A stretch of DNA of 64,000 nt from Candidatus Geocrenenecus huangii (lineage in GTDB: Archaea; Thermoproteota; Nitrososphaeria_A; Caldarchaeales; Wolframiiraptoraceae): assembly GCA_023254095.1 (NCBI GenBank), contig JALNLM010000002.1:96001-160000 (forward strand), in the 5' to 3' direction. The notes beneath the pieces are model-generated. The model was not told the origin of the DNA. It saw only the letters and a program-made list of their open reading frames with translations, and searched no databases. The position numbers and the translations under genes were made by a program. Shown piece after piece: positions 6,756-44,912 of this stretch (positions are counted from its first letter, which is position 1; the number at the start of each line of letters is the position of its first letter).

Positions 6756-9548
6756 TCACGTAGGTTGTTCTCCGAGCATATGGGATAATATTTCACCGAC
6801 GACGAGCCTCAAGGCTTCTTCATCTACATCTCTATCTAATGTTCCCTGACCTATCCTGGGTTGCCCACCTGCCCTCCCACTCAACTTTAACGTAAGCTCT
6901 TCAGCCATCTTTCCAGCATGAACACCTTGGGATTGAGCTTCTTCATTAGATACTACGAGTAAATTTGGCCTCTCGAACCCGTAAACAAGTACAATACATT
7001 TCGGTCCGGCCTTCTCCATCAACTTGTCGGAAATCATGAAAGCATATTCTTTATCTCCGCCAACCTCTCTGGCCACGTATGCCTCCACGCCCCTAATCCT
7101 CAACGGTCTACTAGATAGTTCTCGGGCTCTATAATCCGCGATAATCTTTGATAACGAGTGAATCTTCTTCCTGAATTCTTTAACTTCCTCTAGCTGTTCT
7201 CTTACTTTCTCTAAGAGGTCTTGCGGAGAAGATTTAAGCGTCAAAGATGCTTCGTAAATTATTCTATCATTTTCCTGGAGATATGGTAGCGCGGATACGC
7301 CTGCTGAGAAGATGAACCTCTCAACACCCTCTTGTATCCTCTCTGTTCTCAGTATTTTGATTATTCCTACGTCCTCAGTATTTTCACAGTGTATCCCTCC
7401 ACATGCCTCTGCATCCCAGCCAGGTATCTCTACCACTCTTATTATAGCCGATGGAACTTCTCCTCCCTGATACAATGTAAATCCGTAAATCCTCTCAGCT
7501 TCATTCCTATCCATCCACTTGACGATGACTGGAAGCCGGCTTGCAACAACATCGTTAGCTAGATTCTCAATCTTATTCAAATCCTCTCTGGACAATCTCT
7601 TATGATGGTATACGTCGAGCCTAGCTTTATCAGGCTCCTTCTCCGCTCCCGCCTGCCATGCATGTTTTCCCAAGACTCTCCTAGCGGCCCCCAATACTAT
7701 GTGGGTAGCAGTATGATGCCTCATCAACCTAAGCCTTCTATCTCTGTCTAATTCTCCTATAACGTCTATCCCGACCGGTGGAGTACCGCCCTGTACTTTA
7801 TGTAAGATTACTCCACCGCCGAGGAGAACAGCTTCTTCAACTCTTGCTTCACTCTCCCCCCATCTTAGGAATCCCTTATCTGATGCTTGTCCCCCACTCG
7901 TTGGATAGAATAACGTCTGGTCTAAAATAACGTAATCGTCTACAACTCCTAAGACTCTTGCCTTAAAACTGAATTCCGTAGGTTTCTCATAGTATAGCTT
8001 CCTCGTAGCTGGATGATTCTTTACTTTTTCTTCAAGGATCTTTATCCAATCCTGCGTTGATGTTTCGACTGCTCTAAGATGCCTGGAAGCTACGAGTTCA
8101 TAAAAGTTCTCAGGGATACTAAGCTTCACATTAATTTTTTCAGCTATCTGTTTGACGAAGTCTGGCGTTAAACCCTTCTCATCATACATCCTTACCAAGA
8201 AGTCGGGAGGCACAGTGTCTGTCTTATTCTTTAATTGATTGAGCTCTTTCTCTACATAGGATGCTCCACGCTGAATTGTTTCTCTGAATTTTCTGATTTC
8301 TGACTCGACTATTTCGACTATCTCATCTCTCGCCTCAACTAGATGCGGGAAATCTCCACCCCAGTGATCTATTTGTAGGTCTACTAGTTCGATGAGTTTA
8401 TCTCCAGAATTAAGTAACTCTAACAATCTACAGGCTTTCCTAATGAGTAGTCTAGCTAGGTAGCCGACTTTAACATTTGATGGTACCACCCCCTCACCGA
8501 TTATGAAGGTTATAGATTTAGAGTAATCTAGGAGTGCGTAGACTCTTTCAAGGGGAACTATCTCTTTCTCAATTACTTCTAAAGGTATCCCTGACCTTTC
8601 TGATACTATTCTTCTAGCATCATGAATAGTCTGGCTGGCTTTCGGAACTACTAGAGCCGTGTACGGTGAGTATGCTTCTAGAAGCTTCCGGTCTGGTTTA
8701 GGTACTTCAAGTATCTTCTCCAACTTTGGATAAAGCCTACCATAGATTGCGTCGAAGCAACTCGGAGTTCCTTGGCTGAACCATGCAAATCTTTCTATTC
8801 CATAACCTGTATCCACAGTCCTGATCGGTAGCTCTACCAGCCAGCTATCTAGAGTCTTGTATTGCATGAATACTAGAGTGGCTAGTTCTAAGCCATAGGA
8901 GATAGTCTCGAAGCATGGGCCAGCGTTTCCTCCACCACTCCATATAGATTCCTTGTAGATTATTTCTTCTTCAGGTATTCCGAATTCTTCTCTAACGTAT
9001 TCATGGTAGTATCTTACAGTATCTTCTTTCCAGTAAACTTCCCTGTCAGGATAGTTGAAGGCATGTGCACCCCCCATCTCGAATATTGTTAAGTGTCTCC
9101 CAAATGTTAGCCCAACCTTATCTACGTCGACCAGTCTTATACATGGTTGGCTGATAACTAGAGGGTTTGCTGGGGGTGGAGCTATACCTGAAGTAACGAA
9201 TGGCTGGAAATCTACAATGCTTGCATCGGTCAAGAACATGTCTGTCCTCCATCTAGCTACGACAGGATAAGGCTTGATAACCTGATGACCTCTCCTCTCG
9301 AAAAATCTTAGGAACAATTCTCTTGATCCTTTAACATCTACCTGTTTTCTTGCCAGATTCTTGCCTACGAATTTATATTCTTCGCACGGCGACTCGCCGC
9401 ATATATCCCTATCAGGATTCACTGTCCAGAAGTATTCCCCACATATTCTACATTTTTTCCTAACATATCCTCTTTCTCTGAAAAATTCTAGGGAATACGT
9501 TTCTGGGCCGCGGAGTTTATCAAACGTGACCATTGATCCTTGCGACAA
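6756..9548 (-). CDS. alaS: alanine--tRNA ligase
   Basis: Archaeal N-terminal CxxC, YPVVARWR, VDTGYGIER, editing-domain HTATH and CGGIH motifs. Confidence 0.97.
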   Translation of the reverse strand: MSQGSMVTFDKLRGPETYSLEFFRERGYVRKKCRICGEYFWTVNPDRDICGESPCEEYKFVGKNLARKQVDVKGSRELFLRFFERRGHQVIKPYPVVARWRTDMFLTDASIVDFQPFVTSGIAPPPANPLVISQPCIRLVDVDKVGLTFGRHLTIFEMGGAHAFNYPDREVYWKEDTVRYYHEYVREEFGIPEEEIIYKESIWSGGGNAGPCFETISYGLELATLVFMQYKTLDSWLVELPIRTVDTGYGIERFAWFSQGTPSCFDAIYGRLYPKLEKILEVPKPDRKLLEAYSPYTALVVPKASQTIHDARRIVSERSGIPLEVIEKEIVPLERVYALLDYSKSITFIIGEGVVPSNVKVGYLARLLIRKACRLLELLNSGDKLIELVDLQIDHWGGDFPHLVEARDEIVEIVESEIRKFRETIQRGASYVEKELNQLKNKTDTVPPDFLVRMYDEKGLTPDFVKQIAEKINVKLSIPENFYELVASRHLRAVETSTQDWIKILEEKVKNHPATRKLYYEKPTEFSFKARVLGVVDDYVILDQTLFYPTSGGQASDKGFLRWGESEARVEEAVLLGGGVILHKVQGGTPPVGIDVIGELDRDRRLRLMRHHTATHIVLGAARRVLGKHAWQAGAEKEPDKARLDVYHHKRLSREDLNKIENLANDVVASRLPVIVKWMDRNEAERIYGFTLYQGGEVPSAIIRVVEIPGWDAEACGGIHCENTEDVGIIKILRTERIQEGVERFIFSAGVSALPYLQENDRIIYEASLTLKSSPQDLLEKVREQLEEVKEFRKKIHSLSKIIADYRARELSSRPLRIRGVEAYVAREVGGDKEYAFMISDKLMEKAGPKCIVLVYGFERPNLLVVSNEEAQSQGVHAGKMAEELTLKLSGRAGGQPRIGQGTLDRDVDEEALRLVVGEILSHMLGEQPT

Positions 9549-9747
9549 TTTATCTCTCCAGCAAGCAATCTAAGAAAAGACACTTTAAATACTTTAAATC
9601 AAGCATACTCTCTTTCGCCATTAATATTTTTATTCATATTTTGTTCCACGTCTCATGACCTCTACGGTTTTTCTTTTTATCCGGCTCGGTAAGACTAACT
9701 AATTTAGTTTAGTCGACCGTAATGCCTCCTAATCGGATCGAGTATGT

Positions 9748-10059
9748 TTAACCAAATAATGCGCTCAGTCCAGCTAATGCCTCTTCCTCTTCTTTCTTTT
9801 CTTCTTTCTTCTTCTCCTCAACGGGTTTAGCTTCAGTCGTAGTGGTAGGTGCAGGCGCTGTTGGAGCTACGGCAACAGGCATAGCCGTCGCAGACTTCAA
9901 CACCTCATCTATATTTACTTCAGAGATTGCGGCTACTAGTGATTTTACTCTTACCTCGTCAGGCGTTATCCCCGCAGCTACTAGGACTTTCCTTAGATTT
10001 TCTTCATTGATTTGTTTCCCAGCTTTATGAAGTAGAAGAGCAGCATAAACATACTCCAT
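9748..10059 (-). CDS. rpl12: 50S ribosomal stalk protein P1/L12
   Basis: [11 protein letters not shown] start, Ala/Pro hinge and [14 protein letters not shown] end. Confidence 0.97.
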
Positions 10060-31387: not shown

Positions 31388-31995
31388 AAAAGAAGAGAGA
31401 ACTGGAAAATAAGCTTATAACACGTCTTTCAAGCAGTCTCGTAGATGTGATCTCATCCACAAGAATAAGACCTATAGACCTAACGCTTACATCATTCCTC
31501 CTAGCTCTCTCATCATCTTCTACATATTATTTTTCTCGAGAAAATGTCTATTTTTATTTTCTAGCGGGAAGTCTTCTTCTCTTGTCAGGCTTCCTCGATG
31601 CGTTGGATGGGGCAGTAGCTAGGAAGAAGAACATGGAGACACAGATAGGAGCATTCTTAGATTCAACTCTCGATAAGATAGGGGAAGCAGCAGTCTTCAT
31701 CGGGTTGATTGCTTCTGAAGCTACTACTCCTCTATTGGGCTCTCTAGGCTTAGCCTCCTCCATCCTCATCAGCTACACTAGGTCTAGAGCAGAAGGCCTT
31801 AATGTTGATTTGAAAGGAGTAGGATTGATGGAGAGAGCTGAAAGAATAGTCTTGTTAGTGGTTGCCTCGTTTCTCGAACCATTCTTTAGAGGAGTGATCA
31901 ACTTAACAATGATCGTACTGGTAATTCTATCCTTATATACGCTTGTACAGAGAATACTGTATGTAAGTAGAATACTTAGTCAAAGGCTTTCTTGA
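31369..31995 (+). CDS. CDP-alcohol phosphatidyltransferase (archaetidylinositol-phosphate synthase-like)
   Basis: DALDGAVAR...GAFLDSTLD, SYTRSRAE and GLMERAER motifs. Exact start uncertain. Confidence 0.88.
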   Translation: MGGKCLKKKRELENKLITRLSSSLVDVISSTRIRPIDLTLTSFLLALSSSSTYYFSRENVYFYFLAGSLLLLSGFLDALDGAVARKKNMETQIGAFLDSTLDKIGEAAVFIGLIASEATTPLLGSLGLASSILISYTRSRAEGLNVDLKGVGLMERAERIVLLVVASFLEPFFRGVINLTMIVLVILSLYTLVQRILYVSRILSQRLS

Positions 31996-32320
31996 ATCTT
32001 ATAGTAGCATCTTTAAATTCCAGCTCATATACATCGTTTACTTCTAGTCTTGTTCCGAGAAGTTCGTATTCTTCCTCGCTGAGGTATAGTGTCATCTTAG
32101 GCTTCACAGGTTCTCTCACATAAGGCATTAACCCAAGTTCCCGCAGGTGGCTTAACGCATCCTGAAGCATTTGATGGAACATGAGCGAGTCTTCGGTAAT
32201 TCCATGAGTTCCTCCTGCCCTAACTGTTTTCTTTTCTTCTACGAGTTCAATTATCTTACCTCTCCTACCAGTTTCAGGATCGCTCATGCTTGAGATTCTG
32301 TATACCCTTACCAAGACCAT
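31976..32320 (-). CDS. arcadin-1 homolog
   Basis: DP.TG...IELVEEK and PKMTLYLSEEEYELLG.RLEVNDVYELEF match my recollection of Pyrobaculum arcadin-1 (PRITLWLTEEE...IDVGDVIEI). Confidence 0.7.
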   Translation of the reverse strand: MVLVRVYRISSMSDPETGRRGKIIELVEEKKTVRAGGTHGITEDSLMFHQMLQDALSHLRELGLMPYVREPVKPKMTLYLSEEEYELLGTRLEVNDVYELEFKDATIRFKKAFD

Positions 32321-33231: not shown

Positions 33232-33345
33232 ATCTGCAATAGATATTGTGAATTCCTGAATTTAAAGTAATTCTCATGAATCTTATATCCTTCAGGGGTA
33301 GGGAAAAAATAGTTGAAGGTGAGAAATAATTTATCCTAGGTCTTC

Positions 33346-34836
33346 TCACCTCTTCTTCAATGCTTCATCTAGGTCGTATTCCATGTCTTTTTCCAATTCT
33401 CTCTTAATACGTTTAGACTCTGATCCCCCAACTGCCTCTGATAAAGTCTTGTCTACGTTGCTCTTTATTGGATTAGCTTTTCCATGGATTCTTCCCAGCC
33501 ATTCTTCATATCCTCCCCACCTGAATGGACCATAAAGTCCTTGAGCAATATCTAGTAAATCTCTCTGCGCTCCACCAAGCCACATTTGAATAATCTTGTA
33601 GTCCCGATAATATTTTTCGACATTCATCTCAAAGGAGTATCCATAGGATCCCATGAGCTCCATCGCTTTATTTGTACAGAACATCGCTACTTCTCCTGCA
33701 AAAGATCTAGCGGATGAGAATTTAGCGATCATGTGAGGAGACCATGGCTCACCATAGACTTCTGGTCTGGAAGCTTGCCACGTCACCGATAAATAGTATT
33801 GTCTTGCAAGATCGATCATTCTATACATTTGAGCAAGTATTGAAGCAAACAGCGACCTTTCTCTAACCGGCTTGCCGGCTATCATTCTATCTTTCGTCCA
33901 GTCTAGAACTATTTCTAGCACAGAGGTGGCTACCCCCGTAAGCCTCGCTGCTCCAGCCAGCCTACCTAAACCTATAACGTAACCATGAATGATCTTCGAA
34001 CCGTCACCGGGCTTTTCATCAATCCTGTATCTTGCTGGGACCTCGACATTTTCATACCATATATCTACGTTTTCATCTGTCATGCAGAATCCACATTTCT
34101 TGTATGGTTCCCCGAAAGTCATCCCTTTAGCATTGTATGGAACATATACCATTCCAGCTGCTTCTTCGCCTCTGCCAGGCTCCTCGGAGACTACCACCCA
34201 GTAACCAAGATGTCCAGCTAATAGATGTGGCCATTTTTCCCGCCATCTATCCCAATACTCTGGTTTAGCAGCTGGACCAGGCCATATCTTATGTCCATTC
34301 AGTATGTATACATCGCCTTCTTTTCTTGCGATGACTACGTTTAATGTTCTGAATTCTAGTGATGGGTCTTCGATGTTTGCTCCTCCCTCAGGCTCAGTGA
34401 TGCATACGCATGCTATATATGGAACGTTTCCAGTTAGTTTAGGAGCAAATTCTTCTAATAGGTCTCTTCTGATGTTGACTCTGTTGTACATGAAAGATAC
34501 TATCCAATGGATTTTGCCTACGAGGGTGCTTAACCCCGGGTCTCCTCTCGATAATTCTTCATTTATCATCTGTCTAACTATCGGTGAAAGGCCAAGTCCA
34601 CCATATTCTGATGGAAGGTTTGCGATTGTTAAACCAAGCTTATGACATTTATAGTATAACTCATACAAAGTCTTGTGAGCGAGTTCTTCATCTCTATACC
34701 ATCCACCCTCTAGATCCTGTCTTCTCGGAAAGACTTCTTTTTCTGTAAATTCTCTAATACTCTGAGCCATCAATAATTCTTCATCACTACAAAAACATCT
34801 TGGATATTTGTGCTCAGGCTCAAGAAGTAGATACAT
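33346..34836 (-). CDS. acyl-CoA dehydrogenase family protein
   Basis: LPSEYGGLG, ITEPEGGAN, ILNGHKIW and MGSYGYS...VEKYYRD motifs. Confidence 0.9.
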   Translation of the reverse strand: MYLLLEPEHKYPRCFCSDEELLMAQSIREFTEKEVFPRRQDLEGGWYRDEELAHKTLYELYYKCHKLGLTIANLPSEYGGLGLSPIVRQMINEELSRGDPGLSTLVGKIHWIVSFMYNRVNIRRDLLEEFAPKLTGNVPYIACVCITEPEGGANIEDPSLEFRTLNVVIARKEGDVYILNGHKIWPGPAAKPEYWDRWREKWPHLLAGHLGYWVVVSEEPGRGEEAAGMVYVPYNAKGMTFGEPYKKCGFCMTDENVDIWYENVEVPARYRIDEKPGDGSKIIHGYVIGLGRLAGAARLTGVATSVLEIVLDWTKDRMIAGKPVRERSLFASILAQMYRMIDLARQYYLSVTWQASRPEVYGEPWSPHMIAKFSSARSFAGEVAMFCTNKAMELMGSYGYSFEMNVEKYYRDYKIIQMWLGGAQRDLLDIAQGLYGPFRWGGYEEWLGRIHGKANPIKSNVDKTLSEAVGGSESKRIKRELEKDMEYDLDEALKKR

Positions 34837-34946
34837 TGTTAACCCTCAAAAGCTTTCTGAATATGATTCTTCTTAAATCTTTTTATTCTTATATGTTTCG
34901 GAAAATATTATATAAGCGAAGATAAACGAATATATGAGGTTGGATT

Positions 34947-35762
34947 ATGGGTGTGAAGAACATATATCTTCTAGATTTTGGTATCCTCTCTGGAGAACTA
35001 GGGTGGTTTCTACCTGATCCGGCAGGATACACTGAAACCATTATTGAGAAGAGACCTAGGATTCCCGTATGGACGGATATCCCGGTAACAGGTGCGATAA
35101 TAGAGCACTCAGATGGAGTAGTTTTGATGGATACGGGCAGTCATCCAGAAGCGAAAAAGGCTTGGGGACCTGTTTGGGAAGTATTTCCTATGACCAAGTT
35201 TACGGATGAGAATAGATTAGAGAACCAGTTGAAACTCTTAGGCCTGAGACCGGAGGATATATCCTACGTAGTCTTCACACATTTACATCTTGATCATGCT
35301 GGCCAGGCATATCTCTTTAAAGATCATAGGACGCCTCTCATAGCTCATAGGAAAGAGTTGATGTGGGCGACGTATCTAATGTATCTCGGAAAAGTAGGTG
35401 CTTACCAACCTGTTGACCTTGAATCCTTGAAAGGAGGAGAATGGTTTACTTTCGATGGTGAAACATTCGAGCTTCTCCCGGGAATAGAATTAATGTTTGT
35501 AGGAGGCCATACTCCCGGAAGTATAATAATGAAAGTTACAACGGAAGCTGGGAACAACTATCTCTTTACAGGAGACTTTATACATCTTCCAGAAGAATTG
35601 GAGAGGGAATCCAAGGGCTGGCTACTAGGAGACATAGATGAGTACATCACTGGTTTGAGAAAGATAAAACTACTCGCTAAGAGACCTAGAACAAACCTTG
35701 TTATAAGCCATGACCCGAAGCTTTGGGAAAAATATCCTAAGGCACCCAAACCTCTAAGATAA
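34947..35762 (+). CDS. N-acyl-homoserine-lactonase family metallo-beta-lactamase-fold hydrolase (AiiA/AttM-like)
   Basis: THLHLDHAG, GHTPGS, FTGD and SHD metal ligands; MDTG motif. Confidence 0.85.
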   Translation: MGVKNIYLLDFGILSGELGWFLPDPAGYTETIIEKRPRIPVWTDIPVTGAIIEHSDGVVLMDTGSHPEAKKAWGPVWEVFPMTKFTDENRLENQLKLLGLRPEDISYVVFTHLHLDHAGQAYLFKDHRTPLIAHRKELMWATYLMYLGKVGAYQPVDLESLKGGEWFTFDGETFELLPGIELMFVGGHTPGSIIMKVTTEAGNNYLFTGDFIHLPEELERESKGWLLGDIDEYITGLRKIKLLAKRPRTNLVISHDPKLWEKYPKAPKPLR

Positions 35763-35782
35763 GTGGATAGCTGAAGGAGAGT

Positions 35783-37054
35783 TTGAGGATGTCGTCTCTC
35801 ATCTATATCTCCGCCAATGACACAGTATTTACAGTTAGAAATGTTCAGGTAAAGTTTGGAGAAGGGGTCAGCTCAGAAATCGGATACGAGGCGAGAAGAC
35901 TAGGAATAAAGAAAGCATTGATAGTTACAGACAAGAATATCAATGAAAATACGAGGATTCCTTCAAGGATAAAAGAGTACCTTGATGAAGAGGGCATAAA
36001 GTCCGATATATTTGACGGCACGCATATCGAGCCAATAGATACAGAAGTAATCAAGGCAATCGAATTTGCTAGCGGTAAGGATTATGATGGCTTCATAGCA
36101 GTCGGCGGCGGATCATCGATCGATACCGCTAAAATGATAAACCTCTATACCACGTACCCCACTCCACAATTCAAAGATTATATCGCTCCTCCTACAGGAG
36201 GTGGAAAGCCGGTGCCTGGGCCTCTAAAACCGTTAATATGCCTGCCAACTACAGCTGGGACAGGAAGTGAAAATACCCCTGTTGCAATAGTCGACCTTAC
36301 TAAAGAGAAGCTGAAAGTAGGTATATCTAATCCATATCTTCTACCTTCTTACGCTTTGTTAGATCCTGTACTCACAATCACATTACCACCATATTACACT
36401 GCATCGACTGGGATAGACGCTCTAATGCATTGTATCGAATGCTATACTGCGATACCATACAATTGTAGACCTAGACCGTCTTCCCCCGACAAGAGACCTG
36501 TATACATTGGTTCAAATCCCGTCTCAGATATATTTGTTGAAAAAGCCATGGAGCTCATTGGAAAATACTTGAGGAGAGCATACTATAATCCTTACGATAT
36601 GGAGGCTCGCAGGAACATGCTGTTGGCAGCCCACTTGGGTGGAGCATTTGGAAACGCTGGAGTACATATCTCGCATGCGTTAGCGTATCCGATCGCAGGC
36701 AGGAGGCATGACCTTCCACATGGTATAACAGTAGCCGTTACGGGGCCAGCGATGCTAGAGTTTCTCGAACCGATAGTTCCCTATAAACTTGCTAAGATAG
36801 CTCAACTTCTAGGAGAGAAAACTGATGGGCTAACTATTAGAGAGGCGGCAGCGATTGCTAAAGAAGCATTGATAAAGTTGATGAAAGATGTTAATTTACC
36901 TTCAGGTATAAGTGAGTTTGGATTCGAAGAAAAAGATTTGAAAGAATTGTCTGAAGGAGCTATACTACAACAAAGATTGCTTGCGGTAAGCCCGAGGCTT
37001 ACCACTATAGAAGATATATTCGAGATATATCGGAAGAGCCTACATAACTGGTAA
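35783..37054 (+). CDS. hydroxyacid-oxoacid transhydrogenase (ADHFE1/HOT, iron-containing ADH family)
   Basis: GGGSSIDTAK and PTTAGTGSE motifs, the HOT-type insert YTAIPYNCRPRPSSPDKRPVYIGSNPVSD, and FGNAGVHISHALAYP. Confidence 0.88.
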   Translation: MRMSSLIYISANDTVFTVRNVQVKFGEGVSSEIGYEARRLGIKKALIVTDKNINENTRIPSRIKEYLDEEGIKSDIFDGTHIEPIDTEVIKAIEFASGKDYDGFIAVGGGSSIDTAKMINLYTTYPTPQFKDYIAPPTGGGKPVPGPLKPLICLPTTAGTGSENTPVAIVDLTKEKLKVGISNPYLLPSYALLDPVLTITLPPYYTASTGIDALMHCIECYTAIPYNCRPRPSSPDKRPVYIGSNPVSDIFVEKAMELIGKYLRRAYYNPYDMEARRNMLLAAHLGGAFGNAGVHISHALAYPIAGRRHDLPHGITVAVTGPAMLEFLEPIVPYKLAKIAQLLGEKTDGLTIREAAAIAKEALIKLMKDVNLPSGISEFGFEEKDLKELSEGAILQQRLLAVSPRLTTIEDIFEIYRKSLHNW

Positions 37055-37146
37055 AACCAGCAATACATCTCCACTTATTTTTCATATTTCTAGTAGAAAA
37101 ATAAAACTAAATATATGGTTGCCGTTATTCGTCGGTAGAGGAATAG

Positions 37147-38550
37147 ATGGCGAACTATTTTAACAAGATATCAGGTATGGATGTGGAATTTTTTGAGAAG
37201 CTTCTAGGAAGCGGGAATGTATCGACGAGTGAAGAAGAGTTAATAGCTAATTCCGTTGATGCATACCCTGGCGAGTTCTATAAGCCTGAGACCGTTGTGT
37301 GGCCTGAATCTTCCGAACAAGTAGCTGAAATACTGAGATACGCTTATGAGAGAAGGATTCCGGTTTACCCGAGAGGTGGAGGTACAGGTTTAACCGGTGT
37401 CGCCCCAATCTACGGCGGCATAGTTCTAAGCCTTGTCAAGATGAATAGGATAATAGAGATTTACGAAGAAGATATGCAGGTGAAAGTTCAGCCTGGAATA
37501 ATCTACGATAAGTTGAATAAAGAATTAGAAAAGTATGGTTTATTCTTTCCTCCAGATCCTTCTAGTGGTTCATGGTGCACGATCGGAGGGATGGTGGCAT
37601 CGAATTCATCTGGATTGAAAGCAGTGAAATATGGGACGACAAGAGAATACGTGCTGGGTCTAAAAGTAGTACTCTCAGACGGTAGGGTCGTAACGGTTGG
37701 CAGTAGAACTTTCAAGTACTCTACCGGATTCGACATCTTGAAGATGATGATAGGTTCTCAAGGAACGTTAGGGGTCTTCACAGAGATAACTCTCAGACTT
37801 AGGAACCTGCCTGAGTCTCTCCAGACAGCGGTAGCCTTCTTCCCATCAGTTGAGTCTGCAGTAAAAACAGTATACCAAATTGTTAGAAGAGGATTAGATG
37901 TAGCGGCAATAGAGTTCATGGATGAGAAGATGATGAAGGCGGTCGCCGAATACAAGAAGATTCATCTCCCAGAGTCCAAGGCATTACTCCTAGTTGAGAC
38001 TCATGGAACAAAGATAGCGGCTACGGAGATGATGGAGAAATGTGTTAGTGTATTCGAGGAAAATAGAGCTGTCGAAGTAAGAGTTGCAAGAGATGCTGAA
38101 GAAAGAGAAGTCTTATGGGCTGCTAGGAAGGGGGCTTACCCAGCCACTCTTAGACTCGGAAGATACATGATCATTAGTGATGTAGTCGTACCGATCTCGA
38201 AATTACATGAGGCCGTTCAGAAAGCGTACGAATTGGGGATGAAGCATGGAGTCCATTCATCTGTCATCGGTCATTTTGGGGATGGGAATCTTCACGTACA
38301 CTGGTCTGCTGGAAACGACAAGGAAAAAGTTGAATACCTCCATAGAGCAAACGATGAACTTACAAGATGGGCGATCAATGTAGGTGGAGCATTATCCGGA
38401 GAACACGGAATAGGTACTGAGAAGAAGAAGTTCGTTAAGCAACAATTTAGGGAAGCATACGATTTGATGCTGAAGATAAAAAGAATGATCGATCCTAAAT
38501 GTATATTGTCCCCGGGTATAATCTTCGATCTAGAAGAAGTAGTCTCTTGA
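37147..38550 (+). CDS. FAD-linked 2-hydroxyacid dehydrogenase (GlcD / D-2-hydroxyglutarate / D-lactate DH family)
   Basis: PRGGGTGL, FPPDPSS, GSQGTLG, GHFGDGNLH and SGEHGIG motifs. Confidence 0.9.
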   Translation: MANYFNKISGMDVEFFEKLLGSGNVSTSEEELIANSVDAYPGEFYKPETVVWPESSEQVAEILRYAYERRIPVYPRGGGTGLTGVAPIYGGIVLSLVKMNRIIEIYEEDMQVKVQPGIIYDKLNKELEKYGLFFPPDPSSGSWCTIGGMVASNSSGLKAVKYGTTREYVLGLKVVLSDGRVVTVGSRTFKYSTGFDILKMMIGSQGTLGVFTEITLRLRNLPESLQTAVAFFPSVESAVKTVYQIVRRGLDVAAIEFMDEKMMKAVAEYKKIHLPESKALLLVETHGTKIAATEMMEKCVSVFEENRAVEVRVARDAEEREVLWAARKGAYPATLRLGRYMIISDVVVPISKLHEAVQKAYELGMKHGVHSSVIGHFGDGNLHVHWSAGNDKEKVEYLHRANDELTRWAINVGGALSGEHGIGTEKKKFVKQQFREAYDLMLKIKRMIDPKCILSPGIIFDLEEVVS

Positions 38551-39810
38551 ATGTGGCGAAAGATGATTATGCGGGAAAAAGTAAAGTTAGAGAAGAAACT
38601 AGGAGAATACTTGGAAGATGTATGGAAGTGTATAAGATGTGGATTCTGCAATAGTGTATGCCCGACATCCACCATATCCAGAGCCTTCATGGCCTCCCTA
38701 ACTTCGAGAGGTAGGCTGATACTTCTCCAAGCCTATTTCTCAAACATCCTAGATAAGTCTCTATCGGATGAGAAGATACAGGAATTGATGGAGTACTGTT
38801 TTGGATGTAGAAGATGCATGGAGGTCTGCCCACCCGGCGTCAGGATACCAAATTTAATCTGGAGAGTAAAACAATTCAATAGGGAGAGAAGTTATCTTAG
38901 AAGAACGATACTCATCCGTTATGGTAGTATGCTGAAGCTGCTCTCTAGCGTCTCCAGCTTATCGAATCTTCTTCTACATTCATACATAGGGAAACTATTG
39001 CTTGAAGTAGTTGCTGAAATAAGTAGGGATGTGGATTTTCCCACATTCTATACTAGTCTAGAGAAGTGGATCAATAAAAGAGAGAAACGTCAAAGTCATA
39101 GAGGAAAGCTAGCGTACTTTATAGATGTATTCACAAATTATCATGAAGTAGATTTAGGGAAGAAAATCGTTGGATTAGTTGAAAATCTCGGATACGTCGT
39201 TGTGGCCCCATCTCAAAGAGAAGCTGGAACACTTCTCTTAGAAGAGGGATTAATAGATGAAGCTTACAGGATCGCGAAGGAGAATACTGAAAATCTTTAT
39301 TCAGCTATTCAAGATGGGGCCAGAGTATTGACTAGTTCACCGGCTGCATATCTCGCTCTAAAAAAAGACTATCCTGAACTTCTAGGCGACAGTAAATCGA
39401 GAATAGTCTCCGAGAACACGATAGACATAATCGAACTCTTATTAAAAGAATACGAAGAAGATGCGATAGACTTTGATAAGAACCCAGAGGCCCAAATCGT
39501 CTATCATCATAGCTGTTTTACTAAAGCTTCTGGATTAACCAAAGATATTAGAAGGTTGTTGACGTCGGCTGGATACACGTTAAAAGAAATTGACAGGTGT
39601 TGCGGTATCGGTGGGGTCTGGGGGATGAACAAGAAACATCATTCAGAATCGATCGAGATTGGCTTAAACTTGTTTAATGAGTTAAAAAGGATGAAATTGC
39701 CTGTTGCTTCCCAGAGCGAGACCTGCAGGTTCCAGATAAGAAACAATTCTTCAGTAGAGGTTAGACACCCATTCTCCTTTATAATGGATAGGGTAAAGAT
39801 AAAAAATTAG
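38551..39810 (+). CDS. Fe-S oxidoreductase subunit (GlcF-like: two 4Fe-4S motifs plus CCG domain)
   Basis: CIRCGFCNSVCP, CFGCRRCMEVCP, YHHSC and CCGIGG motifs. Confidence 0.88.
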   Translation: MWRKMIMREKVKLEKKLGEYLEDVWKCIRCGFCNSVCPTSTISRAFMASLTSRGRLILLQAYFSNILDKSLSDEKIQELMEYCFGCRRCMEVCPPGVRIPNLIWRVKQFNRERSYLRRTILIRYGSMLKLLSSVSSLSNLLLHSYIGKLLLEVVAEISRDVDFPTFYTSLEKWINKREKRQSHRGKLAYFIDVFTNYHEVDLGKKIVGLVENLGYVVVAPSQREAGTLLLEEGLIDEAYRIAKENTENLYSAIQDGARVLTSSPAAYLALKKDYPELLGDSKSRIVSENTIDIIELLLKEYEEDAIDFDKNPEAQIVYHHSCFTKASGLTKDIRRLLTSAGYTLKEIDRCCGIGGVWGMNKKHHSESIEIGLNLFNELKRMKLPVASQSETCRFQIRNNSSVEVRHPFSFIMDRVKIKN

Positions 39811-43157: not shown

Positions 43158-44912
43158 ATGATGAAGATTGAATCCTATGATAAAATCATGTCAATAATAG
43201 AGGTACTCTCAATAGTCCTGCTTGCCTCAACCATCCTACTATCCATGGTGGGAGCTCAATCTCCAGAGCTAGTAATAAGGATTGTAGACCCATCTGGTAA
43301 TCCACTGGAAAGAGTCGAGGTCTCAATAACAAAAGGAGATGAAAGCTATAGATTCATAACTAATAGTACTGGATACGCGGTGTTCAGTAAAGTAACGGAG
43401 GGGACCTACAGTATCGTGGCGAAACTCGATAAAGTAGTCGTAGCGAGAGCATTCATAGACTTTCCGAAGGAAACGAGCAAGGTCGTGGTAGCAAATATCT
43501 CTACTGTAAAAATAAAGTTGCGTGATCTGGATGGAAAGCCTGTCCCATCTGCACAGATAAAACTATCAAGCAGGACCGGGATCACTGAATACAGTGCTAT
43601 AACCAACAATGATGGTAAAGCAGAATTTAACAGGATCCCCTACACATCTCTAGATGACATCAAAAGTTACGAGTTAGCTGTTTATATCGATGGGTATAGG
43701 GTTCTGTATCTAAATGACCTAGAGATAATCTTTCCAGAACATGAGCTTAACTATAGTCTCCAGCTTTTAACATTAAATGTAACTACTCTGAATATGGAGG
43801 GCGAGGAGGTTAGTAGGGCCAATGTGAAGCTCGTTGCTGGGAATTATACAAAGACATTAAGGACGGACAAAGGAGTGGCGCGATTCACTCAGATACCTTC
43901 ATCAATCTTTGAGTGGGTTGGTCAGTACACGATAAACGTAACATATACTATCGGAAAAACAGAATACACAGTGTATTCCAGTAAGAGGATGCTAACTTCG
44001 TCTCAATCTATTGACTTAATATTGGGCCTCGGAAGGATTGAAGTAGCAGTGTTAGATGATGAAGGTAGACCATTAAAGAATCTAGCTGTCTCCTTGAGCA
44101 ATCAGAGATCTCTGGACTTCATCCAGCAACAGACCGATGAAGATGGAAAAGTGGTATTTTCCAATATGCCTCTATCGAGAGATGTATCCGAGGCTGGAGA
44201 ATACATGGTCCAGGTATACAAGTTGAATAAGAAGATAATAGAGAGCAAGGTCGACCATTCATCCGCCAAGACGACCCTCACTCTTAAAGTAGCCAGGTCA
44301 AGTGTTAACATATTCTTGAGAGATTACAATAAACAGCCATTATCTGGGTACGATGTTGTTTTAATAGATCTAGACCTAGGAGATCGCTACAACGGTAAAA
44401 CCAGCGTGGATGGGTCGATACTGTTCAAGATTTTACCTGGGAAGTACAGGATAGAACTATACAAAGATGGTAGAATATTGCATAGAAGCGAATTGAATAT
44501 ATTAAATGAGTCTTTAACCCTGGATATTGAGAGCATTAACTTTCCACTAAATATAAGAATTGTAGACGCCTTCGGAAATGATGTAAGAATAGGTGAGTTG
44601 GTAGTCAAACTAGCCGGTGAAACACTCTACAGCGGCCCCATTGATAAGCTATCTAGCCTCACTATTCCACATGTAGGACTCGCAACCATAGATGTAAAGA
44701 TATCTGGAAGATTAGTTTGGAAAGAGACAATATTGGTGGATAGAGTTACGGAGCATGTTGTTAAACTTTCTAGCTACGTACTTCTACTCGGAAATATAGT
44801 GTCTCTAGAGACCCTAGGGGTAGCAGCGTCAATATTCTCCTCCCTGATATTCGTAATACTCGGAGGCTATACCATATATAGAAGTAGGAAAAGAAGATTA
44901 ATAACCAAGTAA
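43158..44912 (+). CDS. cell-surface protein with repeated carboxypeptidase-regulatory-like (beta-sandwich) domains
   Basis: Signal peptide; repeats of D..G.P...V....T...G...F..(G.Y); C-terminal TM helix and basic tail. Confidence 0.78.
   Translation: MMKIESYDKIMSIIEVLSIVLLASTILLSMVGAQSPELVIRIVDPSGNPLERVEVSITKGDESYRFITNSTGYAVFSKVTEGTYSIVAKLDKVVVARAFIDFPKETSKVVVANISTVKIKLRDLDGKPVPSAQIKLSSRTGITEYSAITNNDGKAEFNRIPYTSLDDIKSYELAVYIDGYRVLYLNDLEIIFPEHELNYSLQLLTLNVTTLNMEGEEVSRANVKLVAGNYTKTLRTDKGVARFTQIPSSIFEWVGQYTINVTYTIGKTEYTVYSSKRMLTSSQSIDLILGLGRIEVAVLDDEGRPLKNLAVSLSNQRSLDFIQQQTDEDGKVVFSNMPLSRDVSEAGEYMVQVYKLNKKIIESKVDHSSAKTTLTLKVARSSVNIFLRDYNKQPLSGYDVVLIDLDLGDRYNGKTSVDGSILFKILPGKYRIELYKDGRILHRSELNILNESLTLDIESINFPLNIRIVDAFGNDVRIGELVVKLAGETLYSGPIDKLSSLTIPHVGLATIDVKISGRLVWKETILVDRVTEHVVKLSSYVLLLGNIVSLETLGVAASIFSSLIFVILGGYTIYRSRKRRLITK

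Follow-up and report, generated by a model that had tools for sequence, protein, structure and literature searches.

The window analyzed here, a stretch of 64,000 nucleotides from Candidatus Geocrenenecus huangii (positions 96001-160000 of contig JALNLM010000002.1, our contig C17, in a genome of 1.6 Mb that is 96% complete and lies on 32 contigs), carries a cluster in which an acyl-CoA dehydrogenase (ACAD)-like gene diverges from four co-oriented genes. These encode a lactonase-like hydrolase of the metallo-beta-lactamase fold (MBL), an iron-type alcohol dehydrogenase (Fe-ADH) related to hydroxyacid-oxoacid transhydrogenase (HOT), a GlcD-like FAD-linked dehydrogenase, and an Fe-S protein. An earlier note on this DNA had read them as the operon of a self-contained metabolic cycle, an interpretation that our results support in part. 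We found that the four co-oriented genes are two units, not one ancestral operon: the ACAD-like, MBL, and Fe-ADH genes (unit 1, the triad) are jointly present or absent within the genus, and the GlcD and Fe-S genes (unit 2, 37147-39810) form a backbone that occurs without them. We propose, with about even confidence, that the locus combines a module leading from a lactone through an omega-hydroxy-acid to a semialdehyde with an adjacent, autonomous D-2-hydroxyacid dehydrogenase of the Dld-II type.

The evidence for two units came from a comparison of eight genomes of the genus, G000 (the window genome) to G007, among which G001 and G007 are 91% and 94% complete and G006 is fragmented. The order found in the window, with the ACAD-like gene followed by the MBL, Fe-ADH, GlcD, and Fe-S genes, was the same in G002, G003, and G004, and the contig fragments of G006 were compatible with it. 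G001, G005, and G007 shared the order TtuA/archaetidylinositol-phosphate synthase, arcadin, GcvH, hyp125, GlcD, Fe-S gene, and TldD, in which hyp125 directly adjoined GlcD with no gene in between. Fe-ADH orthologues of 87-92% identity were present in six of the eight genomes and missing from G001 and G007, where the best relatives were 30-34% identical; the ACAD-like orthologue was missing from the same two genomes (best matches 25-26%). When G007 DNA was compared with the window by blastn, homology ended at 33288 and resumed at 37143, and therefore the ACAD-like, MBL, and Fe-ADH genes constitute a 3.85-kb indel. In G005 the MBL and Fe-ADH genes were on another contig, apart from GlcD, and there was no ACAD-like orthologue. 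The lactonase-like gene of G005 (L016:1604-2417) matched in two frames, residues 1-36 and 35-271; it appears frameshifted, and the module there may be decaying.

The GlcD proteins of G001 and G007, which lack the triad, were 72-83% identical to that of the window, and nine residues (R327, Y331, I343, I374, H376, H383, H385, E419, and H420) were identical in GlcD with or without the triad. As GlcD and the Fe-S protein are kept with the same pocket in the absence of Fe-ADH, they have a function that is independent of Fe-ADH. These results weigh against the cycle of the earlier note, in which the Fe-ADH would be a true HOT that oxidizes the hydroxy-acid derived from the lactone and converts 2-oxoglutarate to D-2-hydroxyglutarate (D-2-HG), GlcD and the Fe-S protein would re-oxidize D-2-HG, and the quinone-level acceptor of the respiratory chain would pull alcohol oxidation without free NAD. 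The location of the G005 Fe-ADH gene away from GlcD also argues against this cycle, which we consider unlikely. In its favor, five of the eight genomes had unit 1 immediately ahead of unit 2 and co-oriented with it. In our proposal the units are neighbors because the place of unit 1 is the intergenic region that precedes unit 2.

Across G002, G003, and G004 the triad proteins were 86-90% identical and the flanking proteins 42-88% identical, and identity at third codon positions was about 0.5, alike in triad and flanking genes, that is, saturated. We take this to mean strong constraint on the triad rather than recent transfer; the higher conservation of the triad had suggested that it spread laterally among these species in recent times, a reading that was rejected because synonymous sites are saturated alike in all genes. 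Of 18 metagenome loci, 10 (L105-L113 and L121) repeated the arrangement; L121 is 100% identical to the window and may be the same organism. Within this lineage the arrangement exceeds chance, but it turned up with all four genes in no other genus. The case carries a warning for annotation, in that co-oriented neighbors can combine an inserted module with a backbone operon.

The GlcD protein kept its assignment at the superfamily level by Pfam and NCBIfam, but the claim that it is a D-2-HG dehydrogenase was not borne out, as it scored higher against D-lactate dehydrogenase (D-LDH) and glycolate oxidase than against human D2HGDH and lacks the residues of the C5-carboxylate site. Its scores against PDB proteins were 282.6 bits for mouse LDHD, 273.8 for glycolate oxidase, 252 for LctD, and 204 for human D2HGDH. 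Among NCBIfam models, TIGR00387 (glcD) gave 410 bits (cut-off 568), whereas the D-2-HG dehydrogenase model YdiJ (NF049975, cut-off 1350) gave 171.7 bits for GlcD and 83.3 bits for the Fe-S protein, which here are two genes and not one fused chain. The Zn and substrate residues of D2HGDH, R386, H434, H441, E475, and H476, correspond to R327, H376, H383, E419, and H420 of GlcD; these are described as common to all 2-hydroxyacid dehydrogenases of the family (PMC7801405). At the C5-carboxylate site, T390, K401, Y432, and N443 of D2HGDH are replaced by Y331, I343, I374, and H385. Lys401 is reported to be essential in the human enzyme (PMC7801405), and E. coli YdiJ likewise has no equivalent of it. 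The hydrophobic subsite B of LDHD is formed by V101, W351, S365, and I407 (residues mapped with PMC7801405 and PMC10589216); in a mapping of the positions other than V101, Y331 and I343 of GlcD fit LDHD and H385 replaces Ile407. Three of four subsite-B residues would be of the D-LDH type.

Position 385 was His in the window and in all eight genus orthologues examined. The equivalent residue was Arg in E. coli YdiJ and in all three fused proteins found next to bacterial HOT genes (H-x-R there versus H-V-H in the window; H-x-R as a YdiJ signature is our own reading of the alignment and is not taken from publications), Asn in human D2HGDH, and hydrophobic or Tyr in LDHD, GlcD, LctD, and a GlcD-like protein from another genus, g4. 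The presence of His385 where YdiJ has Arg counts for the cycle; the absence of a Lys401 equivalent, the largely D-LDH-like subsite B, and the low YdiJ score count against it. As judged from these alignments, the GlcD pocket fits neither the D2HGDH nor the D-LDH class cleanly. GlcD was also the sole FAD_binding_4 protein over the cut-off in the 96%-complete genome, and therefore there is no GlcE, the second FAD subunit of the GlcDEF glycolate oxidase. This uniqueness would suit the cycle as well, for if the Fe-ADH reduces a 2-oxoacid, unit 2 would be the only enzyme of the genome able to re-oxidize the product.

The partner of GlcD, which had been called GlcF-like, belongs to the expected Fe-S/CCG family, but its best match was GlpC (PRK11168, 233.5 bits, cut-off 278), whereas GlcF (cut-off 333) gave only 80 bits. 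Two CxxCxxCxxxC motifs are present, but of the CCG domains a single one bears Cys, the first being without cysteines. The sequence showed no hydrophobic or transmembrane-like segment, and a PDB search at E<=1e-5 returned no relative.

The Fe-ADH scored 154 bits with Pfam Fe-ADH and 130 bits with ADH_Fe_C, and its GGGS nucleotide motif and metal ligands (G108-G110, S111, D212, H216, H298, and H313) were invariant in an alignment of 13 sequences (A1). JGI and NCBI give the name hydroxyacid-oxoacid transhydrogenase to its homologues of 47-79% identity, and the nearest Atlas clusters bear the same name, which speaks for the cycle. The HOT subfamily (cd08190, ADHFE1) is defined in PMC5125639 by two inserts, of about 19 residues between alpha5 and alpha6 and about 13 between alpha8 and alpha9; the second is ascribed there to 'all HOT proteins', and HOT-family activity outside animals is stated to be unknown. 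Insert 1 was present in the window protein as 18 residues (about 224-241) unmatched in four PDB Fe-ADHs, and it was found in all 13 rows of A1. Insert 2, whose site lies between the final pair of metal ligands (H298 and H313), was missing, as the spacing between these ligands exceeded that of PDB 8zrl by only one residue. In A1, which contains no animal sequence and in which the insert-2 position was deduced from the human numbering in PMC5125639, a 12-residue insert 2 was present in 6 rows and absent from 7, the window included. Among 58 bacterial HOT-like loci from reference genomes, 54 had an insert 2 of 11-16 residues, one had none, and three were unscorable; it was 0 residues long in the window, its genus, the distant loci L114-L120 (64-79% identity), and G032. 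In the proteins with one insert the loop AGR(R/K/N)H(D/E)LPH was conserved (AGRRHDLPH in the window), with G032 deviating, and this basic loop would suit a carboxylate substrate.

On these alignments the Fe-ADH is HOT-related but outside the HOT subfamily by its published definition. The earlier identification as HOT/ADHFE1 thus holds for the relationship, from homologue names and insert 1, and fails at the second insert, without which transhydrogenase chemistry cannot be assumed. A literature search found no paper on a characterized prokaryotic HOT, and a search that combined D-2-hydroxyglutarate, 4-hydroxybutyrate, transhydrogenase, and operon returned only PMC8651671, which cites the rat enzyme. 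Coupling of HOT and D2HGDH is established in animals (PMC10096224, PMC5125639), which supports the principle of the cycle.

Neighborhoods of the 58 bacterial HOT-like loci were scanned together with those of 22 other Fe-ADH loci. FAD/Fe-S 2-hydroxyacid dehydrogenases were found near five HOT loci (L045, L049, L075, L078, and L080), again in line with the cycle, and a partial GlcD match at one of the 22 controls. Three of the five, at L045 (5 kb away), L049, and L075, are fused FAD/Fe-S proteins of 977-1017 aa whose best NCBIfam match was D-2-HG dehydrogenase YdiJ, with 419-652 bits (cut-off 1350); L078 had a GlcD-type match without an intact ORF, and L080 had GlcD and an LdhH-like Fe-S gene. 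L049 (5461-12095) also carries a LarA-type 2-hydroxyacid racemase. We regard the HOT/YdiJ-like pairs in three bacterial lineages as a lead toward a possible bacterial HOT/D-2-HG couple. All scorable HOT loci with such a neighbor, however, belonged to the two-insert clade, and a GlcD and Fe-S gene pair lay downstream of the Fe-ADH at none of the seven distant one-insert loci L114-L120, several of which are on short contigs. In genus g4 the Fe-ADH (45-49% identity) had a GlcD-like gene (40-42%) 4.7-6 kb away on the other strand. The one-insert HOT relative of L117 (70% identical to that of the window) occurs on a high-GC bacterial contig (L117:1005-6922) as one of four co-directional overlapping genes, the others encoding a GlcD-like FAD oxidase without the usual metal histidines, a DAO-family oxidoreductase, and an FGGY kinase.

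The hydrolase gene had been described as AttM/AiiA-like. Its best PDB relatives were the lactonases GcL and AiiA (69-82 bits), and its relatives include the thermostable lactonase GcL, AiiA, AttM/AiiB-type enzymes, and 4-pyridoxolactonase, so that its likeness to acyl-homoserine lactone (AHL) lactonases stood, but not equivalence to AttM. NCBIfam scores and cut-offs were 86.2 and 390 for AttM, 85 and 475 for AhlS, 82.7 and 325 for 4-pyridoxolactonase, and 71.6 and 375 for AiiA. All seven MBL metal ligands were kept (H112, H114, D116, H117, H188, D210, and H255), the HxHxDH motif being H112-L-H114-L-D116-H117. At the D-x-x-Y motif His213 replaces Tyr, giving D-F-(I/V)-H in the window, G002, and L120; Tyr (D-(A/S)-(V/I)-Y) was found in GcL of the PDB and in all five bacterial HOT-linked MBLs. 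The Tyr of the lactonase D-x-x-Y has a catalytic role. Thioesterase and glyoxalase II families of NCBIfam gave no match to the protein at E<=0.001. None of these results spoke for or against the quorum quenching that the earlier note had considered. A literature search found no papers on an Aigarchaeota lactonase, and the main texts of two Caldarchaeales genome papers (PMC9246946, PMC12979851) contain no mention of lactate, lactonase, alcohol dehydrogenase, or glycolate.

The functional pairing of a lactonase with a HOT-family Fe-ADH, as the earlier note had supposed, recurred elsewhere. An AHL-lactonase-like MBL gene adjoined 4 of the 58 bacterial HOT genes (L035, L044, L047, and L067, in Rubrobacter, an uncultured actinomycete, Actinomycetospora, and Streptomyces) and none of the 22 non-HOT Fe-ADH genes; AhlS was the best family for the two HOT-linked MBLs scanned. 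On the related contig L120 the MBL gene (70%), the Fe-ADH gene (78.5%), and a gene for aldehyde:ferredoxin oxidoreductase (AOR) were co-directional, with AOR immediately downstream. L116 had MBL, an FmdA/AmdA-type amidase, Fe-ADH, and ACAD, and in L114 an ACAD-like gene (69%) lay immediately upstream of, and co-directional with, the Fe-ADH gene (75%). These links bear on a simpler explanation, that no pathway joins the three enzymes, which would be independent and simply inherited side by side, the Fe-ADH being a common alcohol or aldehyde reductase that uses NAD. In agreement with that, the NCBIfam matches of the Fe-ADH were all below threshold and of similar strength to many alcohol dehydrogenases, and in genus g4 the ACAD-like orthologue was on a different contig from the Fe-ADH, beside a major facilitator superfamily transporter. 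HOT neighbors were also heterogeneous, with no dominant partner, in a Pfam survey of 132 flanking ORFs from 38 of the 58 HOT loci (60 ORFs of 17 loci were left out, four loci were dropped as the HOT ORF was not recovered, and the ORF caller is imperfect in high-GC DNA). We nevertheless consider it improbable that the three enzymes have nothing in common, because the MBL/Fe-ADH pairing, with a spacer of tens of bases, recurs in unrelated lineages, AOR directly follows Fe-ADH in L120, and the triad is jointly present or absent in the genus and more conserved than its flanks.

The ACAD-like protein aligned over its full length with acyl-CoA dehydrogenases, with only 87-99 bits. In alignments with PDB proteins, Leu420 aligned with the catalytic Glu of the Y-E-G motif of 2dvl, 3mpi, and 2jif, and Gly occupied what we take to be the catalytic position of the isovaleryl-CoA dehydrogenase type. 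W419-L420-G421-G422 was invariant in all 12 aligned archaeal and bacterial homologues (57-75% identity), and the motif K-I-x-x-M-W-L-G-G was invariant in the family (alignment A2), whose members occur in Archaeoglobaceae, Anaerolineae, Thermodesulfobacteriota, Rhodococcus, Roseovarius, and others. By these alignments the protein belongs to a conserved family without the canonical catalytic Glu. Catalytic Asp at the base, an HCMR motif, and a partner kinase characterize the LvaC/ACAD10/ACAD11 4-phosphoacyl-CoA eliminases (PMC12440821); a reading of this type was rejected, as there is Leu at the base, no HCMR in A2, and no kinase in the cluster. Relatives elsewhere lie near AOR (G187) and between FAD_binding_4 and CCG genes (G080). 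At the G080 locus (L143, G080:C8:44000-60000), two divergent ACAD-like paralogues, 44-45% identical, sit between a CCG protein and a gene set of FAD_binding_4, CCG, and FAD_binding_4, which again ties this Glu-less family to GlcDEF-like redox proteins. The window locus thereby points to a widely conserved ACAD-like family that is barred from the textbook catalytic base.

The absence of the catalytic Glu bears on a third alternative, a propionate shunt like that of C. elegans, in which the ACAD-like protein would form acrylyl-CoA, hydration would follow, the MBL protein would be a 3-hydroxypropionyl-CoA thioesterase, the Fe-ADH would produce malonic semialdehyde from 3-hydroxypropionate, and an aldehyde dehydrogenase (ALDH) like methylmalonate-semialdehyde dehydrogenase (MMSDH), encoded elsewhere, would yield acetyl-CoA. 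In the worm HPHD-1, a HOT orthologue, is described as oxidizing 3-hydroxypropionate, coupled to D2HGDH (PMC10096224); both the genus and L114 show linkage of an ACAD-like gene to Fe-ADH; and the genome encodes four electron-transfer flavoprotein pairs, one enoyl-CoA hydratase, and an ALDH resembling MMSDH (444.2 bits, cut-off 448.5). Alpha,beta-dehydrogenation, however, needs the Glu that the ACAD-like protein lacks, the MBL relatives are lactonases with no thioesterase or glyoxalase II match, and no hydratase gene was found in the cluster, so that we regard this shunt as very improbable. A 3-hydroxypropionate/4-hydroxybutyrate or dicarboxylate/4-hydroxybutyrate cycle was also considered and dropped, as no match to HpaB_N (4-hydroxybutyryl-CoA dehydratase) was found in the 96%-complete genome.

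As to the fate of the aldehyde, the earlier statement that the window has no semialdehyde dehydrogenase held for the ORFs scanned at 28.9-44.9 kb, the rest of the window being outside that scan. The search that the note had suggested, for succinic semialdehyde dehydrogenase (SSADH) or tungsten aldehyde oxidoreductases in the genome, yielded seven AOR-family genes and three ALDH genes, which were SSADH-like, MMSDH-like, and 1-pyrroline-5-carboxylate dehydrogenase-like. On the related contig L120 an AOR gene directly follows Fe-ADH, in line with that suggestion. The SSADH-like gene (TIGR01780, 416 bits; G000:C2:44521-45912, L103 about 8522-9961, minus strand) contains a single in-frame TGA, at which its ORF ends with a length of 407 aa, and the family match runs on beyond this stop. 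Recoding, an error in the sequence, or decay to a pseudogene could explain this.

We therefore return to the proposal made at the outset, that the three-gene unit probably breaks down a lactone via a hydroxy-acid. The Zn hydrolase of unit 1 (33289-37142) would open a gamma- or delta-lactone to an omega-hydroxy-acid, the HOT-related Fe-ADH would oxidize this to a semialdehyde or oxo-acid, with free NAD(P)+ or a 2-oxoacid as candidate hydride acceptors, and the aldehyde would be oxidized by a tungsten aldehyde:ferredoxin oxidoreductase or an ALDH encoded elsewhere in the genome. The chain length could be C4 (gamma-butyrolactone, GBL, and 4-hydroxybutyrate), C5 (valerolactone and 5-hydroxyvalerate), or other. 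Judging from its family, unit 2 would be a two-subunit FAD/Fe-S dehydrogenase of the Dld-II type that oxidizes D-lactate or a related D-2-hydroxyacid and would pass electrons through the Fe-S/CCG subunit toward the membrane chain. Coupling of the two units would be optional and not the reason for the existence of unit 2.

Several points weigh against this proposal. The MBL protein is far below every lactonase cut-off, its His213 stands in place of the Tyr of GcL and the bacterial relatives, and the substrate lactone, its chain length, and the acceptor are all inferred. The proposal gives the ACAD-like protein no role, so that the module is only partly accounted for. For unit 2, His385 would suit a polar or anionic side chain, for example that of D-2-HG, and a search of the 96%-complete genome for lactate permease genes came up empty. 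Bacterial HOT genes adjoin YdiJ-like enzymes in several lineages, and the adjacency of the units in five of eight genomes, with a 92-nt spacer here, makes read-through transcription and functional coupling possible. A bolder combination of these elements, which we entertain as a tentative and rather unlikely possibility, would be a prokaryotic NAD-independent route in which the one-insert HOT relative passes hydride from a lactone-derived omega-hydroxy-acid to a 2-oxoacid (2-oxoglutarate or pyruvate), the membrane-linked His385 dehydrogenase recycles it, the respiratory chain drives the uphill alcohol oxidation, and the Glu-less ACAD-like protein acts on the same carbon skeleton by a new reaction. 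If true, no HOT cycle would have been shown before in organisms other than animals, and the bacterial HOT/YdiJ-like pairs would be its canonical form.

The features of the locus are collected in Table 1. ORF calling in the window confirmed the five genes and the 110-nt divergent gap at the coordinates first reported, and Pfam and NCBIfam upheld the family assignments of all five proteins at the superfamily level; none of the five reached a curated equivalog cut-off of NCBIfam. Database twins of the window proteins carry the labels Aigarchaeota or Nitrososphaerota archaeon.

Table 1. Coordinates of the genes, spacers, and indel block of the cluster, in window positions
Feature	Position	Strand or setting	Basis
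ACAD-like flavoprotein, 496 aa	33346-34836	-	Pfam Acyl-CoA_dh_N/M/1
Divergent intergenic region, 110 nt, AT-rich	34837-34946	between ACAD-like and lactonase-like genes	sequence
AHL/GBL-lactonase-like MBL hydrolase, 271 aa	34947-35762	+	Pfam Lactamase_B, 77 bits
HOT-related Fe-ADH, one-insert clade, 421 aa	35789-37054	+	Pfam Fe-ADH and ADH_Fe_C
Fe-ADH/GlcD spacer, 92 nt	37055-37146	holds right-hand indel junction 37142/37143	sequence
FAD-linked D-2-hydroxyacid dehydrogenase subunit (GlcD/LDHD-like), 467 aa	37147-38550	+	Pfam FAD_binding_4 and FAD-oxidase_C
Fe-S/CCG electron-transfer subunit (GlpC-like), 419 aa	38551-39810	+	Fer4 dicluster and CCG domains
3.85-kb block (ACAD-like, lactonase-like, Fe-ADH)	33289-37142	present/absent indel between hyp125 and GlcD	blastn vs G007

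The divergent gap presumably holds divergent promoters. The Fe-ADH ORF is open from a TTG at 35783; its true start is most likely the ATG at 35789, because GGAG precedes it and the identical database proteins P0001 and P0002 are 421 aa long, and an Atlas record begins at residue 3. The spacer between Fe-ADH and GlcD contains a T-rich run past the Fe-ADH stop and, some 30 nt ahead of the ATG of GlcD, the TATA-like sequence AAATATA; putative terminator and promoter roles for these would allow separate transcription of GlcD. This spacer is about 650-680 nt long in G003 (L015:10879-11536) and in a metagenome contig (L112:2168-2852), compared with 92 nt here. The Fe-S gene starts at the base right after the GlcD stop codon. 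Evidence from RNA consisted of assembled contigs from two metatranscriptome runs of one study. With 95-100% identity, these covered four of the genes in part (ACAD-like, MBL, Fe-ADH, and GlcD), and one spanned the MBL/Fe-ADH junction (35676-35872); that they leave the Fe-ADH/GlcD spacer and the Fe-S gene uncovered proves nothing either way. Support for expression is weak, since DNA can occur in such libraries. Two genes upstream of the cluster is an arcadin-1 gene (Pfam PF18653, 78 bits; 31976-32320, minus strand), which adjoins GcvH and archaetidylinositol-phosphate synthase. A 584-aa protein of repeated CarboxypepD_reg and Ig-like domains, probably a surface protein, is encoded at 43158-44912 (plus strand).

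These loci provide two testable contexts for HOT relatives: in thermophilic archaea, a lactonase with a HOT relative and a tungsten AOR, and in bacteria, canonical HOT with a D-2-HG dehydrogenase resembling YdiJ. With their help it could be asked whether the transhydrogenase principle, in which a 2-oxoacid/2-hydroxyacid couple pulls an unfavorable alcohol oxidation, is ancient.

Among known systems, unit 1 resembles blcABC of Agrobacterium in that an MBL-fold lactonase gene adjoins a hydroxy-acid dehydrogenase gene. AttL is an NAD-dependent Fe-ADH. The logic of blcABC (attKLM), from lactone to hydroxy-acid to semialdehyde, is outlined in a review (PMC5924552). Unlike blcABC, the cluster here has neither an SSADH gene nor a BlcR-type repressor, the related contig L120 having a tungsten AOR; its lactonase reaches 86 bits with AttM (cut-off 390), and His takes the place of the conserved Tyr; its dehydrogenase is HOT-related; and the cluster includes an ACAD-like gene. 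In the cyclopentanone and cyclohexanone pathways (CpnC/CpnD), too, a hydrolase opens the lactone and an Fe-ADH-family dehydrogenase then acts on the omega-hydroxy-acid. CpnD is listed as 5-hydroxyvalerate dehydrogenase in Table 1 of PMC5125639; it belongs to another Fe-ADH subfamily (HVD), and no Baeyer-Villiger monooxygenase was recognized here.

Unit 2 is likened, by domain content and not by sequence identity, to Dld-II of Desulfovibrio vulgaris, DVU3027-28, a genetically tested two-subunit D-LDH with domains PF01565+PF02913 and PF13183+PF02754 (PMC4481167). The two share these four Pfam domains, in a GlcD-annotated FAD subunit and an Fe-S/CCG subunit, and have no GlcE; unlike DVU3027-28, unit 2 has no lactate permease, por, pta, or ack genes nearby, its first CCG domain lacks cysteines, and pocket residue 385 is His. 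E. coli YdiJ also has the domain content of GlcD plus the Fe-S subunit, with a GlpC-like C-terminal half and no Lys401 equivalent, but it is one chain of 1018 aa with H-x-R, as opposed to two genes with H-V-H here. With regard to the animal pair of HOT (ADHFE1/HPHD-1) and D2HGDH, the Fe-ADH here differs by the absence of insert 2, and its neighbor, a D-LDH-like protein with an Fe-S partner and without Lys401, is kept in sister species that have no Fe-ADH. Like that pair, the window nevertheless sets an insert-1 Fe-ADH beside an FAD-linked D-2-hydroxyacid dehydrogenase, with hydroxy-acids as their known substrates in animals and as the predicted substrates here.

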